DNA from: Cyanidioschyzon merolae
Taxonomy: Eukaryota
Length of the DNA: 64,000 bases
Direction: 5' to 3' (one strand)
NCBI GenBank assembly: GCA_000091205.1
Contig: AP006494.2
Below are positions 1 through 50,273 of this stretch, piece after piece. Both the position numbers and the translations under genes were made by a program. Position 1 is the first letter of the stretch, and each line of letters starts with the position of its first letter. The notes beneath the pieces are model-generated. The model ran no database searches and was not told where the DNA came from. It worked only from the letters and a program-made list of their open reading frames with translations.

Positions 1-413
1 AACTCCTTGCCGATTATTTGTACGCGATTTCAGTTGCCCCAGGCTCTGCGGAGTATGCGATCAAGACGCTGATGCATCCCGGAGCCTGGGCCCGTGCACC
101 CTTGATGGATCGCTTGACAGCGCTCTCACCGACGGTACCAGTGGTCTTTCTCTACGGAGCAAACGATTGGATGGATCCGGATGCTGCCAGGACCCTGATT
201 GACAAGGCGCGGGAACTTGGAAACGGAAATATGTGCCTTCAAATCGTACCGAATGCGGGTCATTATCTATTTATAGATAATCCGCAAAAGTTCAATGAGA
301 TATTTCTGCAGGCGCTGAGCCGTCAGATACTCGGATCCGCGGTCGTTTGTGCAGATGTTACCAACACGCAGCGCTCCATTTCCTCGTCCGTGCTGAACTC
401 GTCGAAAGCATGA
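1..413 (+). CDS. alpha/beta-hydrolase fold protein, C-terminal part (ABHD4/5-like); gene begins upstream of the window
   Basis: The frame is open from base 1. The C-terminal block ...VVFLYGANDWMDP...VPNAGHYLFIDNPQKFNE matches the catalytic-His region of ABHD-type hydrolases. Where the stop lies within 330-413 is uncertain. Confidence 0.55.
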   Translation, partial: LLADYLYAISVAPGSAEYAIKTLMHPGAWARAPLMDRLTALSPTVPVVFLYGANDWMDPDAARTLIDKARELGNGNMCLQIVPNAGHYLFIDNPQKFNEIFLQALSRQILGSAVVCADVTNTQRSISSSVLNSSKA

Positions 414-3400
414 ACGGAGAGTTTTGTTGGCTTGCATGCGGCGACCTCGGGGATCTTCAAGCAAAATCTTTGCAGTCCAAATCGATAGAAAACGCGGTTC
501 GCGTAGACAACCGTATCGGAGCCGGCATCACGGACGACGAGCCAAGCATGTCGCTTCCTGTACATATGCTCATCCACGGGTTTCTCGGTTCGCTGCCCCA
601 ATGCTATGTCAATACAGTGAACGTCTATGACGCGTTTCCGTCTTGTCCCTTGCTGTATTGCTTGCTGGACCCGAAGGGAACCTCCTTGCCGAGGATGAAG
701 ATGAAAGCAAGCATCGTTTCTGGATTGAATGCTCCCGCCAGAATCCACCATCCCCGCCGCTGCCGCCAGTTTTGCTTGCAGGTGACGTCCACGTGCGCGA
801 CGTTCTATCCGGTGCGGCTCGTTTCCGAGATCCGCTTGGCGCTCATGCTGCTCATGCTGCTCATGCTGCTCATGCTGCTCGTGATCCATCTGATGCAGGT
901 AACTCGTACAGCGCTCCCGGTATTCGGCACCCATGTGATGCTCAATCTGTGCTATGCGGCCATCGGGCTCCTCGCCAACAGCATCATCCAAATCGTCTGC
1001 AGGCTTAGTGAGGTGGCTCTGCTCTCGTGATCGCAACGGCGAGCCACTAACCATAAGCTCGAACGAAAGCGTTCGAGTGATCTTGTGGAACTGGCGGAAA
1101 GCGCTCCAACAAAGACGGGCGAGACCCGTAAACACCAGTGCCGGTAGTAGTCGCTCCCAAGCGCCACTGAGCTCCTCCAAAAGCCTCCGCCAGCAAAACT
1201 GTGACGTCGGTGGCGATCTCAGCAACCATATCAGCAGTGTGCGTACAAAGAGAACGGGCTGCACTTTCTTAGGACGCGCTTTTGGTCCTCGAATGGGCCA
1301 CAGCGAATGAGGGCGTCCAGCTTCATCGCTCGATGCGAGGTCGCGCGGCAACCAACCAGGACCGAGTTCGCTAACCAGTGTTTCAGCGAACATGTCCAAA
1401 AGCGCACTCCTGGTTATCACCCTACCTGAAAACCGATCTAAAATCGTACGCGCTGTCTGCACTTCGATACCGAAACAGAATGCCAGCCGGGGAGCGACGA
1501 CATCGCGACAATCAAAGCGCCCGTCATTGCGAATTCGGAGCAAGTTGCATTCGCTGATAAGTTTTTCTGTGACGAGTCTGGTCATTAGAGCTATTCTGTC
1601 GAGCTCGCTGCCCAGCGATATCACTTCGCACAGCGGCCTCGCAGCCGTATGCTGCAGGTAACGGTAGCGGTAGAGAGTGCGGCTCATGAGCTCAGCAACC
1701 TGCTCGGCAGTCTGCAGTGTGCCCCGTGCTACCTGATGAACAATAAATAACTCCCAGAATAGATCAGCGACAGAGTCTATGACTGGAGGCCAATTCGCCG
1801 GCAGCTGCATCAGTCCCTCAAGATGCGGTGGCACTAGGACCGAAACCGGACCTCTGCATATCCTGGCAAAGTAGCGACAACTCCAACGGAACAGGTTCTC
1901 CCGTGGGCGCGACGATGCCTGCGCAAAGCCGTTGCCCACCATGAATGCGAAGGCGTATTCATTGCCATCGCTCGGGAGCAGGAGTAATTCTCCGATCTCG
2001 ATGACTACGACGCGGACATTGGTGTGCCCCGGGGGTGCACCTGTCTCGTAGCTGGTACTCCTCGTGGGTAACCAGATGCCACGCTCGAGGAGCGCTCGCT
2101 CCGCGGCGGTTAACGACGCTGCCAAACGTGCAGGGCACTCACTGCGGTACGGACTCTGTCGCGCTAGCTCTGCCCCAAGTAAGAGCGCATCGCGCATGAC
2201 CGCGCAAACAGCGACGAATTGTGGTCCTCGAGGAGGCGCTATCCGACGAAATGCACGCCAGAAGCGCTTCGCCACCAGCCGAGGCCGGTTCAGAAGTGCC
2301 TCGTCCGCAGTGGTAATGAGCGGCGAAGCCTCACCCGGAGGTTGCCACTCAAACTGGAGCATTCGAGACGGATCCAGTCCAAGCCAGCGCAATACTTGGT
2401 CGACATTCTGGAAATGCTCCGAAAAAAGAACCTGCTCAGCTCTTGCCAGATTCATGAGCAAAAACTCGTAGCTTGGATCCCATGATACAGACTCGAGGTC
2501 GTCCAGAAGCCACAGTGGTGCTTGCACACGGAGCTGTTCCGACTGCATGCTATGCACGAGCGAGGCAAAGTGTTTGGGGTCACCGATCAGGAAGCGCGCT
2601 TCGTGCTCATCGTCGTCAGCGCATGAAAGTTTTCTATGCCACTGCGGATCAATGCTTAGCTCCGCACAGCGCAACTTGCAGCTTTGTACGAGTTGGCGAA
2701 AAACTTCACGATGCGAGCGATGTGGAGACACATAGCACACGAGGCGTTTTTCACGCGCTACCGTGAGGCAAGCCGCGAGGCACCGGATCCGTTCGGGCCG
2801 GAACGGTATCGCAAACAATACCCCAGGTCGCTGTCCCGGAGCGCAGTCCATCACCATTTTGAGATAGCCTGGAATCAGGGTCTCACAGGCCGCCGCTAGA
2901 CGACTAAAGTCGTGAAATACAAAGCGGCCGATCTCGGGGGCAATTCGGTTATCGTCAACTGGCCACGGGAGGTCGCGCAAACACTCAGCTTGCAGAAAGT
3001 CGTCAACCAGATGCTCTTCGGCGGCAATTCTCCAGAAAGCGACTGAGGTTCGCTGCCACGGTGGAACCGAACAGCATCCGACAAGGTGATATTTCGCTTC
3101 ACGGAGGACCAGGCGAGCAGCGAAAAAGGCTCTTTCACCAGTGGCATCCTCGAGGGATACCCAGAGCGCTTCCGTACTGTCGATACAGGAGCTATCCTGC
3201 AGCGCGATGCGACATTCGAAACGCAACGTGTCTGCTGAAACGGGTAGAAGCGCGCTCTCGAAGGCTATCCAGGAACGAACGGCACACTGCTGACGCCCCA
3301 GAGCGCTGCATAACACCGCGGGAGGCATCCAGTCGCCGACTGAAGGCGAAAAGCAACGCAGCGCCTCGGTTTCGCTGTGTTGCTCTGGCTGGCCTTTGCT

Positions 3401-8487: not shown

Positions 8488-8586
8488 GAAAATACGGGTT
8501 TTAGCGGTGCCCTCGTGGGTGCCCCGTTTGAACTAGAACAATCGATCTTTTTGATACAATCGTATACAGGGGTCTTACAATTTTTC

Positions 8587-10035
8587 AACTCGATCCTGTT
8601 TCACCTCCGTAGTGTTTTGCAGCAGGAGATCGAAATCTCTGTGCAATGTACCCTATAGGTCTTATACGAATCGCTTGTAGGATATATGCTTTACCATATG
8701 GTGCAAGGAGGCTTGGATTCCTCCAGCGGCTCAGTCATACCACAGTACTCTGATGCTCGAGGAAAACTGAAAGTAGCAAGTATATGCGCTCTGTGCGAAC
8801 TCCGATATTCTCAAAGACTGCTTGCGATCAACGGCACGGAAACAACCCGCTGATCACCTTAAGGAATGCAAGTATGATGACAGTAGCCGCCCTAGGTGTC
8901 TATGTTTCTCAACAGCATGTTCGTGTAGTCTGTAAAACACTGGGACAGAATCACAAAAAGTCTTGCTAAACGCACTGCCATCTTCCACCGGAATCGCAAC
9001 GACAGTGTTCCTGGAACGTCGCTATCCGTTTAAAGCGTAGGGATTTCGGTTTTGGTTTTACAGTCGACGAGACTTTTTTCGGGCGAAATGGACAGTACAT
9101 ATTTGAGTATTCGCGGAGAAGCGAGCCCGTTGTATACCCGACGGAACCCGAAGAGAACTCGGATATCATTATCTGTTCTAACTGCAGTGCATATACTTGG
9201 CGGCCTCAGTCCCGCCCTTAGACAAGGCTCAAATAATAGCACGCAATACGCCGAATCATAGAAGACTCTTCCCTGACATCTTGCGACGTTATTGTATTGG
9301 AAAACGTGGCATTGCGCCATTCCACTTGCGTTCGAGCTTTTGCAGAATCTATCGGGGTGGAGCTGTTTTTCATTCCGCCATTTACCCCGTGGCTCATCTC
9401 CATCGGAGGAGTGTTTTCTATCGTGAAACGGAATGACCGTTTCGCTGGGTGGATCGCTGAAGTGTTCAGCACACGGTAACACCGCGGCTATTTGTCTTTC
9501 TTCCACAAGTCCTTTTCCCTCCGGAAAGGTCTTCACGCCAGGACATCAACAAGTGCATTCATTCGAAGAAGTAAAAAATCCAAGAGAAAGCTATGGACAT
9601 GGAAGGCGAGGATCCTGGAAGCCGTGTGTCGCCGGCTTCGACCAAAAACGAAAAAATCCTCTCCTCGCCGACCATTGAGCGAAGAAGAGCAAATAACGAA
9701 GATGGAAAAGGGAGATATGCGAGAAATGGTGTTTGCCCAGCGGGACGATGACGAGGCTGTAGGCACACAAAGGGCATGAGTTTGAGGAGTCCTCGCAAAG
9801 ATGCGTTCAACCAGCGGCTAGAACCGCATGGAGTTCATGAACCGAGACTCGAAAGCTGCTACGAATATCAGGAGATATGCGGTGCTGAAGACGAGACCCG
9901 CGGGGCTGACAAGAGCGAGCCAACTTTCTGGGACAGCCTCTCAGACTCGAAGTGTGCAAGGAAAAGCTGAAGCCGATAGCAGGGACCCGGTCAAAGAAGG
10001 CCGGAACGCGTCTGTGAGTAAATATATACATTTAT
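8587..10035 (+). mobile_element. non-autonomous Fanzor-family element, copy #1 (~1.45 kb)
   Basis: It is collinear at nucleotide level with 48598-50035, and in reverse complement with 19285-20775 and 59400-60810. The 5' block 9540-9700 (aaaaatccaag...ggatcctgg...tcgcc) and the 3' block 9790-10035 (EFMNRDSKAATNIRRYAVLKTRPAGLTR... = degenerate RuvC-III) are shared with the long Fanzor copies. The right terminus is ...ggcgtctgtgagtaaatatatac. Confidence 0.75.
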
Positions 10036-10387
10036 CCTCATTGTTCTTGGGACATTTTTGAACATTTTGATCCCTTACCTGCCGCCGCGGTGCAATTTCG
10101 CAGCTCGAAGCTTATCGGAGTCGCCTAAATTCGCGTGCGACGTTTTTTGCGCGAGGTGCAAGTAAACTTCAGAAAAGCCACGAGTAATGCGTCATGATGC
10201 AGGACTTGCTCTTCCCTTCGTGACCACTGTCAACCATCTTTTCGCTGCAGACCATACCGCGCCAAAGTTGCGTTCGGGCTTAGCTTGCGCGCGGCTCAGC
10301 GGGCCTGCAGACCACCGGCGGCGGCGTTGCTCGCTGTCGCCTCGCGCGGCACGGACGCGTGCACCCAGCTTTGGACGGCATGCCAGC

Positions 10388-16957: not shown

Positions 16958-19285
16958 TTATGGTGCCACTCGAAGGGCGTTCCCGGATGCTTTAGCGGTT
17001 GCCCTCTCACCTGAGACGTACATTTCATCGATGACATGGGCGTACTTTTCTTGTACGACACGGCGCTTAACTTTCAGGGTTGGGGTGAGCTCGCCGCCTT
17101 CCACGGTAAGCTCGGTGGGAAGGATTCGAAAGTACTTGATCGTTGCATACGACGGCAGTGTCGCGTTCACTTCATCGATGTAATGCTGAATCACATCAAT
17201 GATTCGCTTATCTCTGGAGAGTATATCGGGGCGAGACTCCGTAGATTCTATGCCAATCTTAGAGGTCAACGCCGGGAGCGCACCCTCATCTAGCGTAATC
17301 AGTGCAGTGCAGTACGGTTTTCCGTCGCCAATAACCACTACTTGGGCTATGCCGTCGAACGTTTTAAGCCGCGCTTCTGTTGGCTGAGGCGCGATGAATT
17401 TCCCGCCTGATGTTTTAATCAGATCTTTCAGGCGATCGGTGACAACAAGATAGCCGTCCTCATCGAAACTCCCAACATCACCGGTGTGCAAGAACCCAGC
17501 ATTGTCAATAACTTGGGCAGTACCTCGTGCATCATTGTAGTAACCAGCGAAGACGTTATCGCCTTTCGCGAGGATTTCTCCATCCGCACCAAGAACTACT
17601 TGAATCCCACGGAGGGGCAGGCCCGCGGTCCCCGGCTTGATGGCGCCTTTTGGCGTCAGCGCGATGACACCCGTGCTCTCGCTCTGGCCATACAGCTCCG
17701 CGATGTCGATACCTATGCTCCGGAAGAAGCGTGAGATCTCTGGATTCAGCGGCGCTGCTCCCGAGGCGAACGTATGACATCGATCGAGCCCAAGCAGCGT
17801 CAGGATTTTGCCAATGATGTGCTTCTGGTAGAGGCGCCACTGGACGGTGGTCCAGATGGCTGGCCGTTGTCCGCGTATGCTGTTGCGACACTCACCAATG
17901 GATGCGCCGTTTCGGAGTGCCTGGCTGATGACGGCGCGTCGAAGGAGCGCCTCCGAGGCGAAGCGTTGCTTGAGCGCGGACGCAAACTTTTCCCATACCC
18001 TTGGCACGCACAGGAACAGGGTCGGACGCACCTCCGCCAGGTTGTTCTTCACTGTAGCAAAGCTCTCCGCAAAATAGACGGCATTCGCATCATAGATAGC
18101 AAGCAATTCACCTTGAATGCGCTCCGCGATATGGCAGAGTGGGAGAAACGACAGTGTAATATCGCCGCCGTTTGAACCTACACAACGGGATATTTCCTCT
18201 GCAATGAAATAAAGGTTGCGATGTCGATAGCATGCTCCCTTGGGTTTTCCCGTTGTCCCCGAAGTGTATACGGTCATGCAGATTGCCGACGGCAAAATGG
18301 CTCTCGCTTGGCGTTCAATGTTCGTTGCTGCGCTCTCAAAGTGCCGTCGGCCTTTTTTCAATAGTTCGCTCCACGAAATATTTTTCCAGTGTGGTTTCCG
18401 ACCGCATCGAGGCGAAACTTCTCGTGTGGTATCATTCATGAGCACGACGAGCTGAAGCTCCCCAAGCATTTCCGCAGTATCTAGCAGCTTTGCGTACTGC
18501 ATTTCAGAGTCCACGAAAACAACTTTCGCTCGAAAATTCTCACAGACAAACGCAACTTGCTCCGCTAGATCGTTCGGATATAGACCGGTGGTACAGCCTG
18601 CAAGACACATGACCGCCAGGTCCGCGATAAGCCATCTGGGTGAGTTCGAACCCAAGATGGCAGCGTGGTCGCCGGCCTCGAACCCGCATTGCCTCAGGCC
18701 GTTAGCGATTTGACAAACCAGTCTACCGTACTCCTTCCACGAGATGGATACCCATCCGTCGCCTTCTTTCGATGCCAGGGCAGCAGAATCCGCACAGTTT
18801 CTCCGAATCCCATGAGCATTATCGAAAAAAAGGTTCAATAAGGTTTTCGTTCTAGTCTCCTCTTGAGTAAGCGCGAGTTGTGGGGGCTGCTCTCCCTGTA
18901 AACCGGGAGAAAGGAACGAGTCGCTTGGAGACCCTTCAGGATTCTGCGTGAAGATTCCTGCAAGGAATGGAGCTGCATTATTCGGCTTCTTCGAATCTTC
19001 AACCTTGCCTAACGTTCGCTCACGAGTTACCCGATGCGCCATGTTGTACGACCTAGACGCTGAGCCCTGAGGCGTCTGGAACGTGTTCTGTGCCCTGGGC
19101 TGCAACCACAGCGACGCAAGCGTGTCATTGCCGTGCTGTTCGCAATTTCCCTGCACGCCCAGGTGAAGGTTGCTGCTGAGCGATCGCATAGGCGCCGGCC
19201 CCGGTGTCGGGCTTGCTGCAGGGGTAACAAAAGCATAACCAGAGTCACTTGGCACGTCACTGGTACGAAAATGTTTCATAACCAT
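16958..19285 (-). CDS. long-chain acyl-CoA synthetase (AMP-binding family)
   Basis: It contains the AMP-binding motif YTSGTTGKPKG, LYGQSESTG and the fatty-acyl-CoA synthetase C-terminal region. The first ~80 aa are low-complexity, so the real start may be the internal Met near 19042. The annotated ATG directly abuts the right end of Fanzor-family element #2. Confidence 0.85.
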   Translation of the reverse strand: MVMKHFRTSDVPSDSGYAFVTPAASPTPGPAPMRSLSSNLHLGVQGNCEQHGNDTLASLWLQPRAQNTFQTPQGSASRSYNMAHRVTRERTLGKVEDSKKPNNAAPFLAGIFTQNPEGSPSDSFLSPGLQGEQPPQLALTQEETRTKTLLNLFFDNAHGIRRNCADSAALASKEGDGWVSISWKEYGRLVCQIANGLRQCGFEAGDHAAILGSNSPRWLIADLAVMCLAGCTTGLYPNDLAEQVAFVCENFRAKVVFVDSEMQYAKLLDTAEMLGELQLVVLMNDTTREVSPRCGRKPHWKNISWSELLKKGRRHFESAATNIERQARAILPSAICMTVYTSGTTGKPKGACYRHRNLYFIAEEISRCVGSNGGDITLSFLPLCHIAERIQGELLAIYDANAVYFAESFATVKNNLAEVRPTLFLCVPRVWEKFASALKQRFASEALLRRAVISQALRNGASIGECRNSIRGQRPAIWTTVQWRLYQKHIIGKILTLLGLDRCHTFASGAAPLNPEISRFFRSIGIDIAELYGQSESTGVIALTPKGAIKPGTAGLPLRGIQVVLGADGEILAKGDNVFAGYYNDARGTAQVIDNAGFLHTGDVGSFDEDGYLVVTDRLKDLIKTSGGKFIAPQPTEARLKTFDGIAQVVVIGDGKPYCTALITLDEGALPALTSKIGIESTESRPDILSRDKRIIDVIQHYIDEVNATLPSYATIKYFRILPTELTVEGGELTPTLKVKRRVVQEKYAHVIDEMYVSGERATAKASGNALRVAP

Positions 19286-20775
19286 CGAGTATATATATAC
19301 CTACCCGCAGACGCCTCCCAGCCTTTTTACCTCTCGACTGTTATATCGGCTTCAGCCTGGCCTCGTAGATCCTGAGCCTGAGTCGCTGCCTCACAGCATC
19401 GGATCGCGTCAGCGCCGTAGGTCTCGTCTTCATCGGCTGAAATCGATGGTGGCGTTGAGGTCTCGGTTCACGAACTCTGTGCACTCATGGCCTCTGGTGG
19501 AACTCATCAGTGCAAGGAGTCCTCGAACGCATGCCCTCTGTGCGACTAGGGTCTCGTCATCGACCCGTCGGGCAAACGCTTTTTCTCGCCTATCTACTGC
19601 CTTCCTCTCCTTCGTGCTTTTCGTCACTTGCTACTTTTTGCCTTCGATGGGTGATGAGAAGAGGATTTTTCCGTTTGTTTTCGGCAGCGGGCGATACCGG
19701 CCCTCCAGGGTCCTCGAATTCCATATCCATTCCTTTCCCTTGCATTTTTTCTTACTGCAAATGAATGCAATTCCCTACGCCTTTAGGTGGGGACATTTCT
19801 GGAGGGGGGTGGCTTTTGCGGAAGAAAGATGAATTATAGCCCGCTGTCGCCGTGTGCTGAAAGCTTCAGCGATTCGCACAGTTGAGCGATCTTTACCTTT
19901 CTCGATATGAAAGACTTATCTGATGAGGTTTAATCACGTAGAGTACGGAGAAATGAAAAGCAGCTCTACCCCAACACATTCGTCGAAAGCTCGAACGCAA
20001 GAGGAATGGTGAAATGCTGCGTCTGACCGTAGAGGGACGCCGCCAAAGGTCAGAGGAAAGTCTTCTATGATTCGACAAAGTGGGTGCTGTTGTACGTGCC
20101 TGCTCTACGGGTGAAGCTGAAGGAGCCAAATCAATCCACCGCAGCTCGAACAGAGGATGATGTTGTCGTTCTCATCGTGCTCGATCGGACCTAGAACGAT
20201 CTCCCTCTCCGCGAATGCCCAAACATGCACCGGCCGTTCCGTCCGACGCACGTCTCATCGACTAAAACGCACGAACTGACGTCTCTCTGCTTTATACGGA
20301 TAGCGACGTTTCAGGAACGCTGTCGATGCAATCACGATGGACGATGCCCTTGGGTGAGTTAGGACTCTTCTGCGACAGTGTCCCAGGGTTTCCAGGACCA
20401 TAGGAACAAGCTGTTGAGAAAACGGAGACACCTGTGACGGCTATGACCATATCCTTTGCTTTTCTTAAGATGATCAACGTGTCGTTTTCTACCATTGACG
20501 GCAAGCAGTCTCTAAAAATATCTGTATTTGCCACAGAGCGCACATACTTGTTTCTTCCATTGTTCCTCAATCATCAGAGTCCTGTGGTATGACGGACCTG
20601 AAGGAGGAATGCTGTCCTCCATGGACACTTCAGTAACGAACATACCCCACAGGCAATTCGTCTAGAATCTGCAGAGTATATTACATAGGGATCCCGATCT
20701 GCTGCGATGCAACGCACCAGGAGTGAAACAGAATCGAGTTGACAGTCTCCAGTTCTGGGACGGGGATAACCAGCG
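19285..20775 (-). mobile_element. non-autonomous Fanzor-family element, copy #2
   Basis: It is the reverse complement of copies #1 and #5 along the full length. The RuvC-III relic EFVNRDLNATIDF is on the minus strand at about 19430-19480. The right terminus ggcgtctgcgggtaggtatatatatactcg is immediately followed by the ATGGTTATG start of the acyl-CoA synthetase gene. Confidence 0.75.
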
Positions 20776-24488: not shown

Positions 24489-25639
24489 TTTTAGAGAACT
24501 TTCAGTAAGAGTTCTTGAATATGTCCCCAATGGAGCAGGTCGAAGTTTTTCCTCGTCAATCCAGTGACGTGCATTGCTGCGTCCGTGGATCACATTGAAA
24601 GAGAAAGATCCAAAACTTGAAACGTATTTGATTTAAGCATGCCAAACCTGAGAAAAGGAGAAGCGTGGAGACTTGTACGTAAGCATTGAATGCTCGATTT
24701 CGGTCATTCGACGAGCCCTCCTTTGGGGGCATCGCAAATCATCTCGGATCCCGCAAATGAAAGAGTTCCGGCGGCTACAAGTCCAGGGAGCCACCCAAAA
24801 ACGCCTCCGAGAATCCCAAAACTATTATTGAATTCGTAAGCACGCATGGCTTCACTTCGAATGCCGAGGCCTTACATCCGAACAGAGTTCGAGAAATCGA
24901 AAACCATGAAGAGAGCGAGCAGTGCTCTCTTCCATTTTGATAGAACCCGGGTCATCGATGCCAAAAACTCGGTGCAGCACTTTCGGATTGTATGCAGCTA
25001 TGCACCCAGTTGCTTTCGAGAAAGCGTCCATTATGCTGCACTCTACCCTAAGGTTCCATTACCCATATTTTCTCTCGGAGGTAATGGTCGTTTTGTACGT
25101 TCTATGTGCGCCAAGTGCATGCCGTGAACATCCGCTGTATGGCCTAAACCGCTAGTGCGGATGCAGCATCGGGACAGTACGGCTTTGCCTTACAACTGAG
25201 GTCGTCGGCTCGAGGCGTGCTGCTCTTGACACAAGGTCGGGATTCATAATCATTCTGGGAGCCTGCAATCTGCGCTGATAGACGTCCTGCCTGCGACAGC
25301 GCGAAGCGATATACTAGGAGATGACTGCATCGTGGGCGACGCCCAGACGCAGCACATCCGCTCCTTGCCCCAGTATAAACGGCTTCGCAGACGAGCTGCT
25401 CAGGTCTCACTATAGCGCAAGCCACTGCCGAGTCTCACTGTAGCGCGAGCCAGGCAGCCTCGTCCGGGTTGCGGGATCTCCCTACTGGAAGGTATACTTT
25501 CGCGAATGCGGCAAACTTTTTCCTCTTCTCACTTTTACCGAAGAGGTGGGGATTGTTATCTCGTCGCTAGTTTGTGCCTAGTTTCTGTTCTTTTTTCTAT
25601 AATGCGCTCGATACGTGCACATCCATATCTCGCAGGCAT

Positions 25640-28168
25640 TAGACACGACGCATATCTCACCGCTGATGGGAAACGCGACCCCTCTCAGATGTAGACTCGC
25701 ACCGGAAACACGCGAAGCAGCATGTGGAGCATGCACTGTTGCTGGGGACGAGGTCCATGTACGACAACATCATGGTCTACCGATATTAAGCGTGTTGCTC
25801 TAACGCATGCTTTCTATTTGCGTTCAAGTCCTAGCAAAATATAGTGTTTGTTCGGAATTCTGCTTCAGCCCACATGCGAGCGTGTCCAAGAGTTTTTTCG
25901 TTTTTTTAGCATACGCGTTCGAAGTGCGCTCACTTTCAAAAATCAAAATTCAAGGAAAAGTTACGGACATACAAGTCCAGGATCCTGGAGGCCCAGTGTC
26001 GCCAGGTTCGACACGAAATGAAAAACAATGCTGAGTCCAGAGGAACAGGAGAAGACGAAGAAGCAGATGCAGGAGGCCAGGCGTCAAAAGCTGCATGAGA
26101 AGCGACAGTATGACGAGATGGCAATGGAAGCCTTTCTTCTACGTCAAATAAATGATCCGTACGAACAAAAGTTGCGAGAGGCTATCAGAAACCGTGTCGA
26201 GTCGTACTCCATGAGTATTATCAAGGCTTCGTCTTGGCTAATGCGTAAGGTGAGTAAGATGTACCATGACGTTACGGGCATCAAAATAGTCGAGGTTCCG
26301 GAGGAATTTTTCAACAAGACATTTGCTCGCCACCCCATGTTTGGCACAGAGTAGGCGTCGACGAGAAATGAGCGAGTGCATGCCCTCTACGAAAACCACG
26401 CTGAGTACCGCTTCAACGGTATTCGATACAGGGGTGATTCGCGTATTCACGAATAGGGAGCAATGCAGTGCGCTACGAACCTGAGGCACCAAATGATTAT
26501 GAACCTCGAACGTTTCGTGATTCGCTCCATCTTTGCGCTGTACCCGGGCCTCCCTCGTAACGGGATATGGAACACTACCAATGCCATCACAAACGGTTGC
26601 CAGCATGAAGATGAGATCGAATTCTTCAGCAAGCAGACATTGCACATTATCAGGAATGAAGATTCTGTTATCCGTGGGGCTGTTCAAGAGCACCGTGCGG
26701 TTCTTTGGCTGGTCAACCAAATAGAAAAGGTATCAGATATGAGAAAAGATGGAGAAGGATGTCGTCCCCTCATCCTCTGCTTTTTCGTGTTTTTGGACCG
26801 AGAAATCGAACGCAAGGCGGAGATGGAGCTGGGTGTGGGTAAAAAGGAAGAAGCAGAGAAACGGAAGGTTGCGCTTCTGAGGAAGCGCCTCAGTGTCGTT
26901 CCGTTGTTCAACATCAAGTCACATTTTGTGACAATCGACTCCGCAGCCCTTTACGTCACCATGAAGGAGATCAGTCCGGAGTTCGATGTGAGGAAGATAG
27001 AATTCACCGGTGAAAACCGGGAGACGTACTGTAAGAATATCTTTGATTTCAAACGTCTGAAAAAAATACGAAAAAGATATTCACAGGGACGATCGACAGC
27101 GATGGAGTATCCATATGCGTACCCTTTCGGCGCTTGAAGACAGATTGTCCTATTCCACCCTCGATATCGCCCGTGACGAAGCATGAGGATAGGAAGGAGG
27201 CGAATCTGGCGACGCAGGAGGTGCAGGAGAACGACTTTGTTGGAGGCGCGGGCCCTAGGAACATGAATATCATAACCACCGCTGCACCCAAGTGTGCGGA
27301 AGATGGAATCGACGGCAACATACGTTAGAAAGACATGCGTCTGTTAAAGCTCTCAAGAGCGAGATATTACCGAGATTCGGGAATAATGAATACGAGGAAA
27401 AAGACTGAGACGTGAAATGCAGGAGGGAATGAGCACTTGGAGGCGCTCAGCCCGGTACCTCTCAACGGAGCGGACTTTCAAGCTTTTCTAGAGTTCATGG
27501 AAACTCGTGCTGCTCATGACGAGGAGCTGTGGAAAGAGTGTACAGAGCACCGGCGGGCTCGTCAGCGTATGAACCTGTATAGAGGGGGCAGCATGCATTC
27601 GCCAAGATCATGAGTCAGTTGAGCGCCCTCAAGGAAGACGAGAGTCAAAAGCTCGTAGTAGCATATCTAGCAGGGCGCTGGGCACCCAACAAAGGTAGCA
27701 TACCCACTTCGTCGACGCGTGCCTACGTGAAGTGCGCACGCCGTTTTTTCCCAGTACCGATGGATGACTTTCGAAAATCCGACCCACACTACGAGTTGGG
27801 GGTGCATACTTCAGAGCTTAGGGATGGAGCGCAAGCAGCAGTGCACGAGAGCGATAGAAAAGTACGAAGAGCTGACGGAGCAGGAAACTGCACCGAGGAC
27901 CCGAGTTCGAGGTCTCCTTCCAACGGCGCGTTCAACCAGCAGCAATTAAATCAAGGAGTTCGTGAACCGTGACTTTCATGCTGCTATCAATTTAAGACGA
28001 TGTTCGGTGTTAAAGACGAGACCCGTAGGGCTGACACGCGCGATCCAACTCTGTGGGGCACCCTCTTAGTCTCAAGATGGTACAAGGAGAAGCAGGAACC
28101 GATCGCAAGCGCCTTGTCAAAAATGGCCGGAAATCGTCTTTGAGTGGGCGTGTCTAAATATACTCCAT
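25640..28168 (+). mobile_element. Fanzor (eukaryotic TnpB-like) element, long copy A, degenerate
   Basis: It is collinear with copy B from the left region (25640-25990 vs 42115-42440) through the protein-coding body to the conserved 3' block (27945-28168). The terminus is ...gtgtctaaatatactcc. Confidence 0.75.
26028..28066 (+). pseudogene. Fanzor/TnpB-like RuvC nuclease gene, copy A (multiple frameshifts and stops; RuvC-I Asp replaced)
   Basis: Segments in three frames are homologous to copy B: the N-terminal DPYEQKLREAI...FFVFLDRE, then [13 protein letters not shown]...NIFDFKRL. The RuvC-I region reads NDFVGGAGPRNMNIITTAAP, with GAGP where copy B has GADPG. The Zn-finger region is KCARRF and RuvC-III is EFVNRDFHAAINLRRCSVLKTRPVGLTRA. 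Confidence 0.7.
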
Positions 28169-28639
28169 GATTGTAGAACGTTTATCGTTTTGCAGAACAA
28201 GCTGAACAAACCTCACGGGATGCCGTCCCCGCTCCACGACTACGGACATACGTCAAGGCCGCAGCGGTTTGCGCGTTACCACTGCGCGTACTGCAAGTGC
28301 GTGCGCGACGGAGTCTGCACGACGCTTTGCGAACACGTTGGAGCTCTCTGCGTTCTATTGCTTCTCTCTGAAGGTGTTCACCTCACTATCGTTCTTTCCG
28401 AAAGTTTTCGCAGCAGCCTCTTGTTGCCTTTGAGAATGAGTCGGGATAACCAAGGTTTGCAACCACAAAGTCACAGCACGGCGTTCTGTGTGTTTGCGCC
28501 GTGGCCTCGAAACCGGAGTGCGGCCGGGACGCAGCGCGACCTGCGAGTCGGATGTCAGCGCTGGCCCCGTTTTTCCGCAGGTGGTGTCTCCATCTCCGCA
28601 GAACACGCCCAAAGGGAGAGGACGCTGAGGTCTCTGAAA

Positions 28640-38219: not shown

Positions 38220-38640
38220 GAACAGTGCCATACTTTTAGCGACTGCAACACACCGCCATGCACATCACAACGTCTCCGCAGACAGTAGTCGTCATCCGGA
38301 TCCCGTTGCACACGGATGCAGTGCAGAGGAACGATGCGCGCACCAGCAAACGCCTTTCAGAAAGCGAACGACGCCAGCGGTGTAGAGTAGTGGCGGCAAC
38401 CGCGCCCTGGACAATACGTCTCCAGCTTAGGTGCAGACGCCTCCTCGTCTTTCTCGACCGGCCACCTACTACTGCCTCCAACTTTTTCTCATATAGTTCC
38501 ACTTTGAGTGATTGTCCGACAAAATTCTCTCTGGTCAGCTCCGCAGGTCTTGTATCCATCATTGCACCAAGCCCGGAGACTAACCAACAAGTCACTTGCG
38601 GCCTTCCGAGAAAAGATAACGAATTAACGGTACATTAACG
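38220..38640 (-). mobile_element. Fanzor-family 3' fragment (#4), 5'-truncated at the LINE junction
   Basis: Its reverse complement matches copy B 44640-44905, including the C-terminal tail TRENFVGQSLKVELYEKKLEAVVGGRSRKTRRRLHLSWRR and ~100 bp beyond ggcgtctgcac. A degenerate RuvC-III remnant lies at about 38610-38635. Confidence 0.65.
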
Positions 38641-39334
38641 AAGAAGCAACACCAATAGAGGACTCTACAATAGGAAAAGAGACCCAACCAGATACGGAGA
38701 GGGAGGCACAAAGGCCTCATGATCCACCTAGATGCAAAATAACCAGAGAAAGCAGCTCAGGAAAGAGCCCGAAGAAGAAGAAGGCCAACGAGAAAAAATA
38801 GATGAATAGAAAAAAGAACTCCCGAACGAGCCCATCACAACTTGTTCCCCGAAAGAGCACCCCAGCAGGAACTCAAGAAAGCTGCCGCCAAACCAAGTCA
38901 CCTACTCACAGCGCTGAAGATGCGAAAAGCCGTGCATACAAATCTTTAGACCAATTGGCACGCGAGTATGTAGATGGGAATCAGAAGATTGCCAGAGAGC
39001 TGGGACTGCTTGCACCAGAACGTAACAGTTGCAAACCTCAGTACCTGAAACGACGTACCAAAACTCGGATTGATGAATGCCACCGACTCTATAAAATCGT
39101 CAACCGCACCGCCATACGCGCCAACGCCGGAGACAAGGAAGCGAAGGCAGCGCTACCGGTGCCACAGGCGCAACATGAAGAAGCTATCAAAAGAAAGAAG
39201 AAACTTTCCAGAGAAGACAAACGAGAGGATCGAAACCGCAGAATCGCCTCCCTGGCGAAATCTATGTTGGAGAGCACCAACGAAGATGAGACCTGGCGCT
39301 ACATTCGATCGAGACTGGACCCACCAAAAAGTGC

Positions 39335-40679
39335 TTGGGGCTCACACCAATCGTTTATAAGAAAGCGCTGAGGACGGAGAGTGCCTCAGTGAATGAGGCC
39401 TGGACGGACCACGGCACAGAATTACATGAAGACGCAACTGGGCACTGCCAAGACAGAATCTATTGGCACCAATGTGCTGCCAAACTACAGCGCCTCGAAC
39501 CGGTACCGGAATGGAACGACCCAATCTTCTGGCCTGAATCTGTTCGGACCCTGCTATGCTCAAGCAACCGCAAAACACCTGGCATCGACGGTATCTCTGC
39601 GGAGTGGATGATACTGGTGACCCCAGAAGACGGGACAACAGGGACACCATCGATACCAGATGAACTTGACACAAGCTTAGGCAAACGCCTTTTGGAGCTC
39701 ATTCAACGCATGTTTGAAGAGGCGTACATCCCGGATGTATGGAGGACTGCCGAGGTCGTACCGATCCTCAAAAAGGACTCCCACACATACACAGACATGA
39801 ACATCTACCGGACTATGCGCCTCATCCCGTCAATCATGAAGCTACTTTGCGCCATGCTCACGAACCGGATCCAGAGGCGCCTCGAGGAACGCAAGTTCTT
39901 CGCCCCAGAACAGGCTGGATTCCGGAGCCGCGAGGAGTGCATGAGCCATGCCCTGACCCTCATTGAAGTGGCGCAACGTCGCTTCATTAGCGACCAACAA
40001 CCAGCTTACGTATGCTTCATCGACTTCCAAAAGGCCTTGGACCCGGTCCCGCATGAGGCTCTATTTCTGAAGATGCAACGAGCCGGAGTCTCCGGAAAGT
40101 GCTTAGCGTTCTTCCGTGCGCTCTATGCAGACTCGTGGATGCGCATCCAACTGGGCGACTGCTCAAGAACCCCTTCCATAAGAATCCACCGTGGACTGCG
40201 ACGGGGCGACCCCACATCCCCGCTCCTTTTCAAAATCTTCATCAACGATCTGCTGAACATCTGCAGACAATACGGGCTTGAGGTGCCGTGGATAGACTGT
40301 GGAGATGCCCGATGAGGAGCCCTCACATAGGAACCGCCTCGCAGGCCGTCTATTTGCGGACGATGTCGTGCTGTTGGCACCCGCCCCGGGAACGCTTGCG
40401 GCTAGCATGGAACAAGTCAGCGCCTGGGCCGATCGCTGGGAGATGAGCATAGGAGCATCGAAGTGCGGCGTCATGGTCATCCATGGAGACTCGCAGAGCA
40501 TTCGCAATCGCTCGTGGCGGTTGCAGAATCAGGAAATTCCGATCGGGGAAAAATATCGCTACCTGGGGGTCTGTCTCACGCCGACGCTCGACGAAAAGGC
40601 ACACGTTGACGAGATGATCGCCAAGATGCATAGACGTACAGCGATCGCACGCCCAGTCCTATCCGACCTATCCCCTTAG
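39335..40679 (+). pseudogene. LINE reverse transcriptase domain (frameshifted)
   Basis: RT domains 0-7 are readable across ORFs 39335-40315 and 40299-40679. Confidence 0.75.
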
Positions 40680-40934
40680 CAATCCGTACCAGGGCACTAA
40701 GGATGTGTATCATCCAGCCTGCGACCTGGGGTGCTGAATGGTGCGGCATGAAGCACCCAAATGCCTCGCGTCTGCAGACAGCCGCCAACAGGGCAATGCG
40801 ACTCGTTGTAGTTGGATGCTCAATGCAGAGCAGAGCAACCAACCCGCTGGCACTCGGACTTGAACTCCAAATAGCCTCGATAGAAGCGATAGCGGCAGGC
40901 TGCCGGGCACGCATATGGGCCAAAAGGGCCCACC

Positions 40935-41954
40935 ATGTACACCTGGTTCAGTCGGAGTTTCATGCAGACCCCAACGCACCGCAAAAACACTTGGATGAAA
41001 TCAACGCAGATTTGGCTGAAGCGCCTCTTAGGAGACAACACGCTCCAATCGTTCCCCAGAAATATAGAATTCTCCCGTCTCCTGAAGCGAACGGTCCAAA
41101 CAACAGTACGGGAATGTAGACATGCAGTCAGTCGCGCGAGTGACGCCGGCTTGACTCTATACTGGAACTACAACCTAGCATACACATGCAAGTACTGGTG
41201 GGAGGCGCTGGGGTTCCCGGGACTTGCTCGCGGCAGCCAGTGGCTCGCCAAAATCCGCGTTGGTGGCTTCTGGCTGGCACCGGCTCTAAGCCGTATAGGA
41301 ACACCGGAATCGCACTGGGAATCACACTGTCCCTGCTGTGGAGACGAGATCCCCGAGACGATGACATATTTAGGCTTACAGTGCCCGCGCTGGAAACAGG
41401 AGCTGGACGTCACCGTGATATTCAAAGGCCGGACACTCACTTTGAGTGTAGCACTGGCAACTGATGGTCTGTTAACGGAGCCTCAGCGCTCATTAGTTGC
41501 GAACAAACTCACACTCTACCTTCTAGGCGGAAGGTCCAGCGAATCGGATGCGCACACGGGCCCAGTGCTCTCTGCGCCTACCTACTGGTGGGTGTCAAGC
41601 AGAAACCCGCATTGCCAACCGACAACAACGCATTCCATGCATGATCACGAAGGAGAGAGGCGGCTCCCAGGATTCATTCTAACAGTCAAGTTTCTCCAGC
41701 GTGTCGTGCGGCGAAGACAAGCCTGCATCCGCAGACTATCCAAGCACAAACTGACGATGAGACCGGATTCTACGTCGGGTGAACCATGCCTCGAGCCGAC
41801 GCCCTCTGTGGTATGGAAAAGCCGTTCTGTCTCCGTGCAGCGACCGCACCGGCGCTTTAGGCGCCATTGCTGTCGCTTTCGGCAGGCTCGGCACACGATA
41901 GGACGTATGAAACGACCAGAATATCCAAAACGAAGTACAGGTAATGTAACTTGA
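40935..41954 (+). pseudogene. LINE ORF2 C-terminal region with CCHC zinc knuckle
   Basis: CPCCGDEIPETMTYLGLQCPRW... lies downstream of the RT in the same element, after a frame break. Confidence 0.5.
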
Positions 41955-42493
41955 GTGTAAGGGGTTGATGGATACCTCACCGCGCACTGAAAAAACACAA
42001 AAAGAGAGAAAGAAAAGAAAAATGCGCACAATCGGAGAACGCTGGCACAAGGAAACGTTTTGTTCATTCTAAAAATCGCACTCGTTAAGCGCACCTGGGA
42101 GATCAGGCGGTCACCTGACACGACGTGCATGTCGCCATTGAAGGGAAACGCGATCCTGATCAGGAGCGTACTGCTCTACTGTACAAAATTTTATTTGCGT
42201 TAAAGTCGTAGCAAAATACAGTTTTTCAATTCATTTGTGTTTCAACCCTCAAACAAGTCTAGTCAAGTGTTTGTTCGCAGTATATTATATAAGGGTTCAA
42301 AGAGCGTTCTTTTTCAAAAAACTAAAAAAAAGGAAACCTATGAAAAAGCAAGTCGACGATCCTGGAGGTCCAGGGCCGCAGGCTGCTAGAAAAAAACAAA
42401 AACACTGCCGAGTCCAGAAGAAAATGAAGAGAAGGAGGACTGAAAGGGGAGGCTCTACGTCGAAGGCGGCAAGAAAGACAACTGTACGACGAG

Positions 42494-44760
42494 ATGGTGG
42501 TGAAAGCCGGTCTTCTTGAACATATCAAGGATCCGTACAGGGAAAAGTTGCGAGACGCTATCAAAAAACGTCTCGATTCGTACTCCAAGAGTATTGTCAA
42601 GGCGTCGTCAGGACTGATGCATGTGACGAGGGAGATGTATGAAGACGTGACGCACATCGGAACGGTCGAGATTCCGGACGAGTTTTTCGACAAGACCTTT
42701 ATTCGTCATGTGATGCTTGGTACAGAGGAAGCACGGAAGGAAAATGAGCTAGTGCATGCCCTCCACGAAAACTTCGCGGAATTCCGCTTCGAGGGCACTC
42801 GGTACAAGGGTGACTCGGATATGTACACATATGGGGCAATGAAGTACATTACGAACCTGAAGAACCATTTGACAGAGAACCTCGAACGTTTCATGAAACG
42901 CGTCGTGTTTGCACTCTACCCAGGCATCTCTTGCAATGGAAAATGGGCGATTATCAATGGCATCACGAACGATCGAAAGTATGAAGATGAGATCGAATTT
43001 GTCGACAGGAAGGCGCCGAGAGTGAGCGCGAAAGAAGCTTCTGCGATCCGCGCGGTTTTACAAGAGCATCGTGCGCTACTGGGGCTGGCGAATCCAACAG
43101 ACAAGATATCAGAGTTGAAAAAAGATAAGGAAAGATACTATCGCCTCGTCCTGCGGTATTTCGTGTTTCTGGATCGTTAACTCGAACGCTAAGCGGAGAT
43201 GAAGCTGAGTGAAGAGACAAATGAAGAGTGGGAGAGACGGAAGGCTTTCCTAATGGGGAAGCGCTTCAACGGCGTTCCAATGTGCAAGATCAAGTCACAT
43301 TTTGTGACTATCGACTCCGCAGTCCTTCATGGCATCATGAAGGAGATCAGTCCGGAGTTCAGTGTCAGCAGGGAGGAATTCTCCGGTGAAAACCGGGAGA
43401 CGCACTGGAAGAATATCTTCGATTTCAAACGCCTCTAAGTAAGCAAACAAAGGGTATTTACAGGGTTGATCGAAACAGATGGAGTAGCCTTGTGTGTACA
43501 CTATCGGCGCTTGAAGACAGATCGTCCAGCACCGCCCGTTACGAAGGATGGAGAAAAGGAGGAGGCTGGTCCTGCGACACAGGAGGTGGAGGATAATGTC
43601 CTTGTCGTTGACGCGGCGAAGGATGAGGATCAGAAGGAAGCGGGTCTTGCGATGCAGGAAGTGCATGAGAAGGACCTTGTCGTTGACGTCACGAAGTATG
43701 AAGATGAGAAGGAGGCGGAACCTGCGATGCAGAATGTGGAGGATAACGACCTTATCGTTGATGCGGCGGAGCATGAGGAAAACAAAGAGGAGGATTCTGC
43801 GACGCAGGAAGTAGAGGATAACGACCTTGTCGTTAACGCGGAGAAGCATGAAGAAACCAAGAAGGCAGGTCCTGTGACACAGAAAGTGCAGGGTAACGAC
43901 TTTGTCGTTGGCGCGGACCCTGGGAATACGAATATTATAGCCGTCGCTGTACCCAAGCGTGCGGAAGATGGTGCTGACGGTAACTTGCGTCAGAAAGACA
44001 TGCGTCTGTTGAGGTTCTCGAGAGCAAGATACTATCGAGAATCCTGTATAATGAATGCGAGGAAGAAAATCGTCAAATGGAATTCAGGAATGAAAGATCA
44101 CCTGGAAGCTTTGAGCGAGGTGACGAGTCGAGGAGCGGACTTTAAAGCTTTTCGGGAGTTCATGAAAGTTCGCGTTGCCCATTGGGATGCACTGGGGGAG
44201 GAGTATACCAAGCCCCCGGTGGGCTCGTTTGCGTATGAATTTGTATTTTGGGAAGCAGCGGGCGTTCGCGAATTTTTTCAATCAATTGAGTGCCCTGAAG
44301 GATGATGAAAGTCAGAGGCTCGTAGTAGCGTACGGGGCAGGGCAATGGAAGACCCAAAAAGGAACTACGCCAGCTCCAACGACGAGGGTGTACAAGGAGT
44401 GCGCAAGGCGTTTTGTTACAATACCTGTAGATGAGTTCCGAACATCGTATACACACCACGACTTGGGGTGTACACTTCAGAGCGTGGAGTTAGAAAAGTG
44501 CCCGCGGAGCCTTGAGGATATAAAAAAGTATGGACCGCTGACGGTAGAGCAAAATGGAAAGGATGTCGAAAGTTCGTGGACTACTTGCATTAATAAGTAG
44601 AACCAGTGATGGTAAGAAACGTATGGAGTTTGTGAACCGAGATTTTAATGCCGCTATCAATATAAGGAAATGTGCGGTGCTGGAGAATAGACCTCCAGAG
44701 TGGACAAGAGAGAACTTTATTGGACAACCTCTCAAAGTGGAACTATATGCGAAAAAGTTT
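42494..44760 (+). pseudogene. Fanzor/TnpB-like RuvC nuclease gene, copy B (two in-frame TAA stops and at least 3 frameshifts; introns not excluded)
   Basis: The N-terminal region is MVVKAGLLEHIKDPYREKLRDAI...RYFVFLDR. RuvC-I is [19 protein letters not shown] (43900-43950). It is followed by ...LVVAYGAGQW... and the Zn-finger-like region YKECARRF...GC...KCP. RuvC-III is MEFVNRDFNAAINIRKCAVL (44624-44665), and the C-terminal tail is TRENFIGQPLKVELYAKKFEEVVCGRSRKTRRRL. Confidence 0.75.
43563..43862 (+). repeat. 4 x 75-bp in-frame tandem repeat inside Fanzor copy B, immediately upstream of RuvC-I
   Basis: The units are [75 protein letters not shown] and [25 protein letters not shown]. The native fifth unit [21 protein letters not shown] follows. 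Copy A has a single unit. Confidence 0.9.
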
Positions 44761-44889
44761 GAAGAAGTGGTGTGTGGCCGGTCGAGAAAAACGAGGAGGC
44801 GTCTGCACGTCAGTTGGCGACGATTTGTCTATGGCGCCGGCCGCTACTACTGCACGCCGTTGGCGTCTTTCGACTTTCGAACGGCGTTG

Positions 44890-46959: not shown

Positions 46960-48597
46960 TGACGTGAGCGCAGAGCGTATGTATTTCAAAAGTATCATCT
47001 TCTTGATCGACGAGACTGGCAAGTCACCTTGGTAACTAGGAGCGAGCGCGTGCCCTTTTACCCAGTCCCTGGTTCCAAACTGGAAACGATCGGGCGTACG
47101 GATGGATTTCGTATGCGTTGAACAGCGTCGCTGGTGCTTAGGCTTGGAGCGTTCGTCCTCATGAGCTGCTGAATGCTCTGCGATCAAGATATCTGTAAAC
47201 ATATCGTGCATGAGTGGCTGATCATGCGTGGCACCGAGAGCGCGCTGCAGCTGGATGAACCTGGAATCGACAAGCTGCGGTCTAGCTTGCACGCGGTGCC
47301 GCGCTAGAGTATCCTGGGTTCTTGGCAGCTCTCGAAACTGAGTTTGTACTGGACGGGAGACTCCCGAAGGCGGACACGTTAAGAAAAAGTAGCTCGCTGG
47401 CTGTACCGGACATTGACACTGCTTTTCCTGTTTCTCAGTGCCAAGAAACGAGTAATAGACAATAACGCGCATTTCCCTGAGTTGCTATCGTGGTTTTCGG
47501 CACCAGGCTGAGCCGACGGCTGAACACACGAGCACGACAGTTGACCCTGCTCCCAGAATCCTGTGCATCGATGCATCACCGCTGCGCTGCGCACTTGTTC
47601 GCCATCATTTCTTCTCGGGATCGAGCGCATTCCCAGGCGCATCTTTCGCTTGAACATGCCAGTCGCAGTGCAGTAACGAAACTGCATGAAATGGACGCGC
47701 ATGGGAAGCGCGATGTTCACGAGAGCGTCGTCACGCGCTGCGCCTTGTCAAAGGCAGATGCGATCAGTAACGCGACAAACGTTTTACGATCGTGGAGTAT
47801 GTCTATATATGTGTAGACCCGCCCCTAGACGCCCCCCGGCCTTTTGCGACCGGTCTCCTGTTATCCGCTTCAGTCTATGCAGACACACTTCGCGCCTGAG
47901 AGGCTACACCATGGAGTTGGATGGACCCAGCTCCTTGGGTCTCGTCTACAGAATCACACATCCTCTGATACCGATTGCGGCGTTGACTGCTCTACGTTCA
48001 CGAAGTCCTTGCGTGCAGTTCTGTTAGTTGAACTCACTATTGCAAGGGTTGCGAGGACATGTGCCCTCTGTGCCACTACAGTCTCCTGTACCTCCACTGT
48101 TCTTCTTCTTGTTTGTCACTTGCTCTCCTTGGCTCTATGGTCGGCGAGTAGAGGATTTTTCGGTTTTTTAATCGAACCCGGCGCCACCGGGCCTCCATGA
48201 TCTTTGACTTTTATATTTGTAACTTTCACTTAGATTATTTATTCTTTTTAAATGAACGCACTTCGAGAGCATCTGTTATAAACCGCGACAAAGAACTTGG
48301 TGACGCGCATCTGAGGGATGGAACACAATTCAGATGAAAGACCGCAAGTGTGCACAACGAGTGCAGTTCGTTTGTGCGCGGGGCCCTTTGGAGGTAACTG
48401 GTACAATATGTATTCTTTTCTTGCGTATTTCAGAGCAAACGATATGTCTGTTCGCACCATCGCATCCGCGCATGCGCCTTCGCGGAATACCGGGTTCAGA
48501 AGCTCTTCTCCTTTATCTTTTGGGACGAAATAGACAACTCTTCTAGTCTTTTAACTCAGTTTTGGTCCGCGCACGCTGAATGGAATAGAATGCTATT

Positions 48598-50035: not shown

Positions 50036-50273
50036 CTCTCTGTGGTCTTGAAACGTTTACCGTTTCAATGCTCACACATATTGCAACAGCCATATCGCGT
50101 CATCGCACAGGCGATGTGTCCATCGGCAACGCCTAGCTGTTGATCAAACGATCCGGCGGGCGCGATATGCCACCCTCGGAGTGCGATCAAACATCCAGGC
50201 TCACAGGCGGACGCTGCGAGTGTACTTCCCTCGCAAGCCGCTGAGGTGTGCCTAGCGCTCGCTTTGAAGCAGT

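Follow-up and report, generated by a model that had tools for sequence, protein, structure and literature searches.

What are the four repeats of about 1.45 kb that lie scattered through a stretch of 64,000 nucleotides of the red alga Cyanidioschyzon merolae (contig AP006494.2 of assembly GCA_000091205.1; hereafter, the window)? They share sequence with two longer repeats in the window that contain a Fanzor gene. A preliminary description had taken them for non-autonomous partners of the Fanzor elements, in which the nuclease gene was replaced by a different core of ~900 bp. We think it very likely that all four are fossils of a cut-and-paste transposon of the Tc1/mariner superfamily (DD34E, with a transposase of the DDE_3 family), in which the transposase gene is broken and the Fanzor gene has been gutted.

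We compared the short copies by self-BLAST (BLASTN with the c1 region as the query and the window as the target) and by a four-way alignment, and we refined the ends of the elements from the positions of their terminal inverted repeats (TIRs). Copy c1 is an element of 1500 bp at 8576-10075 on the + strand. The other copies are c2 at 48542-50076 (+), c3 at 19252-20751 (-), and c4 at 59371-60815 (-), which was placed by BLASTN and its TIRs. These elements range in length from 1445 to 1535 bp, and ~900 bp of each is a transposase pseudogene. They are collinear over ~1.45-1.5 kb and lie about where they had been described, and their pairwise identity is 68-71% rather than 75-80%. Identity is nearly uniform within the copies (0.60-0.70 per segment) but falls to ~0.4, the level expected by chance, in both flanks, which implies that the boundaries are real, that the flanks are not duplicated, and that the copies are dispersed. 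BLASTN of the c1 region also gave partial matches within the two longer repeats (the long copies). The short copies are an interspersed repeat family that is related to the Fanzor copies.

The core of ~900 bp turns out to be a transposase gene, as the preliminary description had suspected, and it is of the DDE class. All of the short copies contain the whole gene. In c1, it runs from MYPIDRRRIACRIY at 8646 to SFFxKSFSLRxGP at about 9543 on the + strand, with the start and end seen in intact relatives (P0002, P0005, and P0010), and its ~298 codons are interrupted by frameshifts and stops. The Pfam model DDE_3 (PF13358) matches the stitched consensus translation of the four copies (E = 8.2e-13; 48.9 bits, given a cut-off of 28.6) as well as a consensus of 32 copies (E = 1.5e-20, 74 bits). 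If the polymorphic indels are repaired, then the consensus regains a D, D, E triad (in DETCFGRNG, LLLDNVAFHH, and NPIEGVFS). The gap between the second D and the E is 34 residues (hence DD34E), both in the repaired consensus and in P0002, P0005, P0006, P0007, P0010, and P0012. Individual copies have lost one or more of the catalytic residues. The helix-turn-helix (HTH) model HTH_Tnp_Tc3_2 reaches only 20.6 bits on the consensus, which is below its cut-off of 31.5 (intact relative P0005, 33.3 bits; HTH_33, 28.9). A database search with the four-copy consensus found many decayed fragments of open reading frames (ORFs) from hot-spring metagenomes along with intact transposases of 294-298 amino acids, and P0002, P0005, P0007, P0010, and P0012 have both HTH and DDE_3 domains. 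A profile of the intact relatives matches the catalytic domain of Sleeping Beauty, SETMAR, and Mos1 in the PDB.

The blocks that the short copies share with the long copies had been described as the termini of a Fanzor element, but they are Fanzor coding sequence. The Fanzor of the window is CMe-1, the Fanzor1 of C. merolae: motifs from the long repeats, including NRDFNAAINI, match only CMe-1 in the published supplements (PMC3627910). The corresponding element consensus, CMe-1A, is 3169 bp long with an ORF at 906-3110 (PMC3627910). The "5' block" (9573-9655 in c1), which was thought to lie upstream of the Fanzor ORF, comprises 20 nt of leader and the first ~49 codons of CMe-1 (MEKEVEDPGGP...). 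The "3' block" (9771-10014 in c1) consists of ~80 codons at the end of the gene, with the RuvC-III motif MEFVNRDFNAAINIRR, and reads into the right TIR. The core is not between these blocks: at 8646-9543, it is 5' of both. All four copies do have the 3' block, but c4 has no 5' block at all. More precisely, the N-terminal remnant of Fanzor1 in c1 is at 9593-9762 (+), from the ATG through ~49 codons to a deletion junction, as judged by a BLASTN match to CMe-1A 885-969, by the start of the CMe-1 protein, and by the alignments that place the junction. The C-terminal remnant, with the RuvC-III motif MEFMNRDSKAATNIRR and a short tail, is at 9763-10046 (+) (BLASTN to CMe-1A 2841-3083, and the ORF listing); it is also a candidate scaffold for an omega-RNA.

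Nor was the nuclease gene replaced by the core. The short copies match the CMe-1A consensus only at 785-813 (which is the left TIR), at 885-969 (extending to ~1052), and at 2841 to ~3084 (2737-3084 in c4), and this reflects clean internal deletions of Fanzor, with the transposase upstream as in intact composite elements. We found two types of deletion. Type I (c1-c3 and ~12 other loci) keeps CMe-1A ~885-1052 and resumes at ~2832, so that ~1052-2832, or ~1.78 kb, was removed. In type II (c4 and ~10 other loci), the end of the transposase is joined directly to CMe-1A position 2737 and everything between was lost, including the N-terminal remnant. RuvC-I and RuvC-II are deleted from the short copies, and what is left is at most ~49 N-terminal codons and the RuvC-III end. 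Because the type I junction is out of frame, these copies do not encode a mini-Fanzor. Types I and II are two independent deletions. Because each type keeps sequence that is absent from the other, both must descend from a longer element, and this implies that the full composite was once present in this lineage.

The elements are bounded by inverted repeats. In c1, the left TIR (TACAATTTTTCAACTCGATCCTGTTTCAC) is at 8576-8604 and the right TIR (TTGGGACATTTTTGAACATTTTGATCCCT) is at 10047-10075, both given on the + strand. In the alignment of 32 copies, support for the consensus rises sharply at TATAGTCTTTCAACTCAATTTTGTTTCAC and drops after GTGAAACATTTTTCGTTTCACTGACCATA. The two ends form a 29-nt inverted repeat: the left one agrees with the reverse complement of the right one at 18 of 29 positions (p = 0.006 relative to shuffles; alignment score, 18). 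Tc1/mariner elements are expected to duplicate a TA target site. The consensus ends read TA/TAGTC...GACCA/TA, which is compatible with a TA duplication, but decayed or conserved flanks blur the distinction between the target-site duplication (TSD) and the TIR.

Intact relatives of the proposed ancestor do exist. Two assembled contigs, L009 (Logan SRR32481250) and L010 (SRR14578319), each encode a transposase of 298 amino acids followed by a Fanzor1 on the same strand (624 amino acids in L009 and 687 in L010). The reconstructed transposase of C. merolae is 47% identical to that of L009 (E = 4e-91), and CMe-1 and the Fanzor of L009 share 39% identity across ~650 residues (E = 6e-149). Both elements have TIRs of 29-34 bp (at 3-36 and 3349-3382 in L009, and at 374-402 and 3657-3685 in L010) and end in TA on both sides. 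Their TIRs contain the inner motif AAAATGTTACAC, and the inner motif that they have in common with the short family (GAAAAATGTTWCAC) is unlikely to be due to chance (p <= 0.0005). Besides having both genes open, L009 and L010 differ from the C. merolae family in their spacing: there are 224 bp between the genes in L009 and 83 bp in L010, and a 3' untranslated region (UTR) of 180-250 bp follows Fanzor, whereas the Fanzor ORF of C. merolae extends into the TIR.

How many copies are there, and in what condition? We scanned metagenomes with an alignment of six decayed copies. The 80 loci that we obtained represent ~30 distinct copies with different flanks and two orthologues of window copies. The consensus set of at least 32 loci consists of the distinct metagenome-derived copies together with c2 and c3. 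Some hot-spring contigs, from several Joint Genome Institute (JGI) metagenomes, match the window over 2-7.7 kb with 99.3-99.7% identity, so they are from the same species. Look-ups of the exact products of three housekeeping ORFs of the window gave no hit, so the window is from a strain that differs slightly from those sampled. These include the orthologous locus of c1 (in L011, L025, and L083, 99.3-99.7% identical) and the c4 locus (in L046, L047, L051, and L073, 99%). The copies are ~78% identical to the 32-copy consensus and none is intact: the transposase ORF is open in 0 of 32 copies, and the longest stop-free stretch is 89-271 amino acids. Per-segment identity to the consensus is 0.66-0.80. 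Among the four window copies, divergence at the first, second, and third codon positions of the transposase is 0.324, 0.307, and 0.282. As there is no excess at the third position, we see no sign of purifying selection among the copies, and the expectation that the ratio of nonsynonymous to synonymous changes would be below 1 was not borne out.

These results also dispose of a quite different idea, which is that the repeats are segmental duplications of one locus or conserved host sequence, such as a gene family or a regulatory module. All four window copies do sit in intergenic gaps that adjoin housekeeping genes. But the flanks are unrelated, ~30 further loci are in different contexts, stops and frameshifts break every copy, there is no codon-position signature, and the content is a transposase, Fanzor, and TIRs. 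We consider this idea refuted.

Some observations do weigh against a composite DDE transposon. First, we did not find a transposase and a full-length Fanzor together in any one copy among the at least 32 loci, so the composite ancestor is only inferred, from the two types of deletion and from L009 and L010. Second, the consensus TIRs are only about 64% identical to each other. Third, the TA duplication is unreadable, as the left flank is conserved at positions -5 to -1 (TTATA) and the right flank is noisy. Fourth, many copies share their defects. About 22 of the 32 have the same out-of-frame spacing of 31 nt near transposase codon ~268, and most of these also have an in-frame TGA ~30 codons before the end of the gene. 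In the middle of the gene, 20 of the 32 copies have a +1 indel in a run of Gs. The master copies that were amplified may already have been defective.

The shared lesions bring us to another explanation: that the short copies were only ever mobilised in trans, as non-autonomous partners akin to MITEs (miniature inverted-repeat transposable elements) or to "ghost" elements, and were kept for Fanzor's guide-RNA module. We doubt this, but it deserves some weight. The lesion near the end of the transposase, shared by most copies, speaks for it, and the mid-gene indel could be read in the same way. The mid-gene indel, however, cuts across deletion types I and II and may be recurrent slippage; we had considered the copies that carry it as a trans-mobilised clade and dropped this idea due to the incongruence. 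More broadly, 60% of the 1.5-kb element is a full-length transposase gene whose consensus has its catalytic triad, which does not look like a MITE. We take MITEs to be short (under ~800 bp), non-coding, TIR-bounded derivatives of an autonomous element, and at 1445-1535 bp and with a pseudogene, the short copies do not fit. The label of MITE-like suits the short copies poorly, while mobilisation in trans is a possibility given the common C-terminal lesion. The progenitor had a complete transposase gene, and the copies moved either with their own enzyme, which was possibly truncated at the C terminus, or in trans.

The other part of the trans explanation is the guide RNA. The omega-RNA of Fanzor and TnpB systems is a transcript of the transposon's right-end region and may overlap the ORF (PMC10432273). 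As the C. merolae Fanzor ORF reads into the right TIR, any omega-RNA here would overlap the retained remnant. Both types of deletion keep the last 240-350 nt of Fanzor along with the right end, but with only two deletion events, this retention is statistically meaningless. The last 321 nt of the short consensus are predicted to fold somewhat more stably than shuffled sequences (z = -2.5, versus -0.3 for the transposase segment; the internal controls are -0.3 and +0.7), and the values for the 3' end of CMe-1A (-2.25) and for the 3' UTRs of L010 (-3.1) and L009 (-1.7) are also negative. On the other hand, the Fanzor remnant is no better conserved than the rest of the element (0.79 identity to the consensus, versus 0.80 for the transposase), and searches with Rfam and for tRNAs gave no match. 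It is plausible from these folds that the short copies retain a guide-RNA module, but we regard the module as putative.

A published precedent for such partners is the ghost Spu-1 loci of Spizellomyces punctatus: 134 copies with inverted repeats and a working omega-RNA but no Fanzor ORF (Saito et al. 2023; PMC10432273). Like the short copies, they are bounded by the inverted repeats of a Fanzor element, have lost its ORF, and have kept the right-end region; they also outnumber the copies that encode Fanzor. But the ghosts have a length of ~550 bp and no coding capacity, are well conserved, and were shown to produce working omega-RNAs, while the short copies are 1.5 kb, contain a transposase pseudogene, and are heavily decayed. 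A closer analogue of the ghosts is a fifth, 588-bp relative in the window, at 47759-48346 (-), which is missing from the preliminary count of four copies; that count is correct for the short copies proper. We identified the 588-bp element by self-BLAST, BLASTN, and TIR placement. It is a double-deletion derivative, with the left TIR, a leader of the CMe-1A type, the type I deletion of Fanzor, the right TIR, and no transposase. It is head-to-head with c2, ~195 bp away, and it is the only element here that fits the definition of a MITE; an earlier survey of MITEs listed none for C. merolae (PMC3964958). The preliminary description also compared the short copies to palindrome-associated transposable elements (PATEs), but this is the wrong class. 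PATEs are of the IS200/IS605 type, with subterminal hairpins that are recognized by a Y1 HUH TnpA and without TIRs. The ends of the short copies are the inverted repeats of a DDE transposon, and neither the short elements nor L009 or L010 contain an HUH/Y1 gene.

We therefore return to a composite DDE transposon and sketch how the family might have arisen. The ancestor would have had a left TIR, a transposase, a Fanzor1 of the CMe-1 type, and a right TIR, with the Fanzor ORF running into the latter. Its DDE transposase would have bound to the TIRs, cut the element out, and inserted it elsewhere. Derivatives that had lost most of Fanzor would have continued to spread by means of the retained TIRs and, at least at first, the transposase. 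The retained 3' end of Fanzor may once have provided omega-RNA for Fanzor that was made elsewhere. Then the family would have died, and the copies would have decayed neutrally since.

How do the long copies relate to this ancestor? In its published description, CMe-1A numbers ~150 copies, which are ~80% identical to the consensus; no TIRs were reported, and neither its TSD nor its class was determined (PMC3627910). The long copies are collinear members of CMe-1A and contain all of the Fanzor motifs, but with frameshifts. Long copy A is at 25012-28201 (+); BLASTN aligns 25012-28066 with CMe-1A 55-3010 at 79-80% identity. Long copy B is at 42067-44865 (+) and matches CMe-1A 638-3145 at 84-88% identity. 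The left TIR of the short family is present at 785-816 of the CMe-1A consensus, where it precedes the Fanzor ATG by ~90 bp (matching at 27 of 32 positions, with a score of 44, versus 16.8 +- 2.5 and at most 30 for shuffled sequences). Copy A has both the left TIR (25840-25868) and the right TIR (28173-28201), which define a Fanzor-only unit of 2362 bp (25840-28201). Copy B has the left TIR (42217-42245) but, like the CMe-1A consensus, it ends in a different tail of 85 bp instead of the right TIR. As for the claim that both termini are kept, the short family and copy A do share both TIRs; it was the sequences that had been named as termini that were wrong.

Furthermore, two motifs are common to the leader of CMe-1A and the short copies: TATAGCAG(G/A)AG, which in the short copies immediately precedes the start codon of the transposase, and a motif beginning with AAGTGCGTTC, which immediately follows its stop codon. 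This is the remainder that we would expect from a clean deletion of the transposase gene. The short and long elements thus seem to have arisen from one composite transposon by reciprocal deletions. One could go further and propose that they worked as a split pair, with Fanzor-deleted elements as donors of transposase and transposase-deleted elements of the CMe-1A type as donors of nuclease and omega-RNA, each serving the other in trans through the same TIRs. Besides the shared TIRs and leader motifs, both families are multicopy and they are of similar age (~78% identity to consensus for the short copies and ~80% for CMe-1A, PMC3627910). Nevertheless, the CMe-1A consensus and copy B lack the right TIR, and the consensus extends ~785 bp beyond the left TIR, so most of the ~150 copies of CMe-1A were probably not spread by this transposase. 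Judging from these sequences, we think that a split pair is improbable. If it were true, it would provide the first assignment of the C. merolae Fanzor family to a class (Tc1/mariner, DD34E).

Neither the composite layout nor nuclease-less derivatives are new. Elements with a Mariner transposase and a Fanzor1 include PUl-1 and PUl-2 from Pythium ultimum and PGv-1 from Phaeocystis globosa virus (PMC3627910), and autonomous associations of Mariner/Tc1 with Fanzor were reported by Jiang et al. 2023 (PMC10530073). PUl-1, PUl-2, and PGv-1 resemble the ancestor that we propose in their order (TIR, DDE transposase, Fanzor1, and TIR) and in their superfamily (DDE_3). In both systems there are Fanzor-only derivatives with the same TIRs (PUl-4 there and long copy A here). 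However, in C. merolae, all of the copies are dead, Fanzor is internally deleted, and the TA duplication is not readable. Also, the similarity of the PUl-1 transposase by tblastn is weak and is confined to the motif PPYSPxxNP, so it is not a close relative. CMe-1A and TE-N2_CMe (Bao & Jurka 2013) are from the same genome as the short copies, from the same Fanzor lineage, and of similar age. But CMe-1A was described without TIRs, without a transposase, and with its class unknown, while the short copies, which contain a DDE_3 gene, lack TE-N2 and ~1.8 kb of Fanzor and have the right TIR at their end.

In the literature that we searched, which did not extend to Repbase, no Tc1/mariner family is described for C. 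merolae. What seems to be undescribed is the C. merolae family itself, along with what it implies for CMe-1, namely membership in a DD34E Tc1-like transposon with TIRs: the short copies and the left TIR within CMe-1A tie CMe-1A to a transposon of this type. No new mechanism emerges from our results, and all of the copies here are dead. But our results do provide a natural series within one small and genetically tractable genome (elements with a transposase and a gutted Fanzor, with Fanzor only, and with neither), which should be of use in studying the contribution of Fanzor to a DDE transposon.

Finally, we describe the surroundings of the long copies. Within the Fanzor ORF of copy B, a 75-bp tandem repeat of ~5 units (43537-43917) lengthens an acidic stretch (CMe-1A 2117-2197). 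Copy B's C-terminal Fanzor frame continues without a stop into the ORF of a mitochondrial-type glycerol-3-phosphate dehydrogenase (44554-46959), so copy B ends within ~100 bp of the start of that gene. This read-through is probably a coincidence.

On its other side, copy B is preceded by a degraded non-LTR (long terminal repeat) retrotransposon at 38800-42062 (+). The ORF at 39335-40315 matches RVT_1 (E = 2e-14), 40299-40679 includes a FADD motif, and 40935-41954 includes one that is CCHC-like. At its 3' end, the retrotransposon is the reverse complement of TE-N2_CMe (the first ~535 bp of CMe-1A), so TE-N2 may be the 3' end of a long interspersed nuclear element (LINE). The 3' terminus of the retrotransposon meets copy B precisely at position 638 of CMe-1A, the boundary between TE-N2 and the Fanzor part (window 42040-42070), and it is oriented the other way round from the CMe-1A consensus. 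CMe-1A as a whole is made up of TE-N2, 150 bp, and a TIR-Fanzor unit without the right TIR. We asked whether CMe-1A might have spread by riding along in the 3' region of a non-LTR retrotransposon, but this was not supported: the LINE-like copy in the window shares only 1-271 and 457-534 with the consensus, and it lacks both 636-784 and the tail at 3086-3169.

Two more fragments are related to CMe-1A. A piece of its end (2950-3169, 83% identity by BLASTN) is at 38351-38567 (-) and adjoins the 5' side of the retrotransposon, and a TE-N2-like piece of 170 bp (72% identity) is at 53855-54027 (+). The CMe-1A/TE-N2 consensus begins with a sequence (GACAAAACGTTTACATTGACCAT) similar to the right TIR region of the short family. 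Among the metagenomic loci (L034-L036, L042, and L059-L064), sequence of the TE-N2 type is inserted in one short copy and directly adjoins the right end of another.

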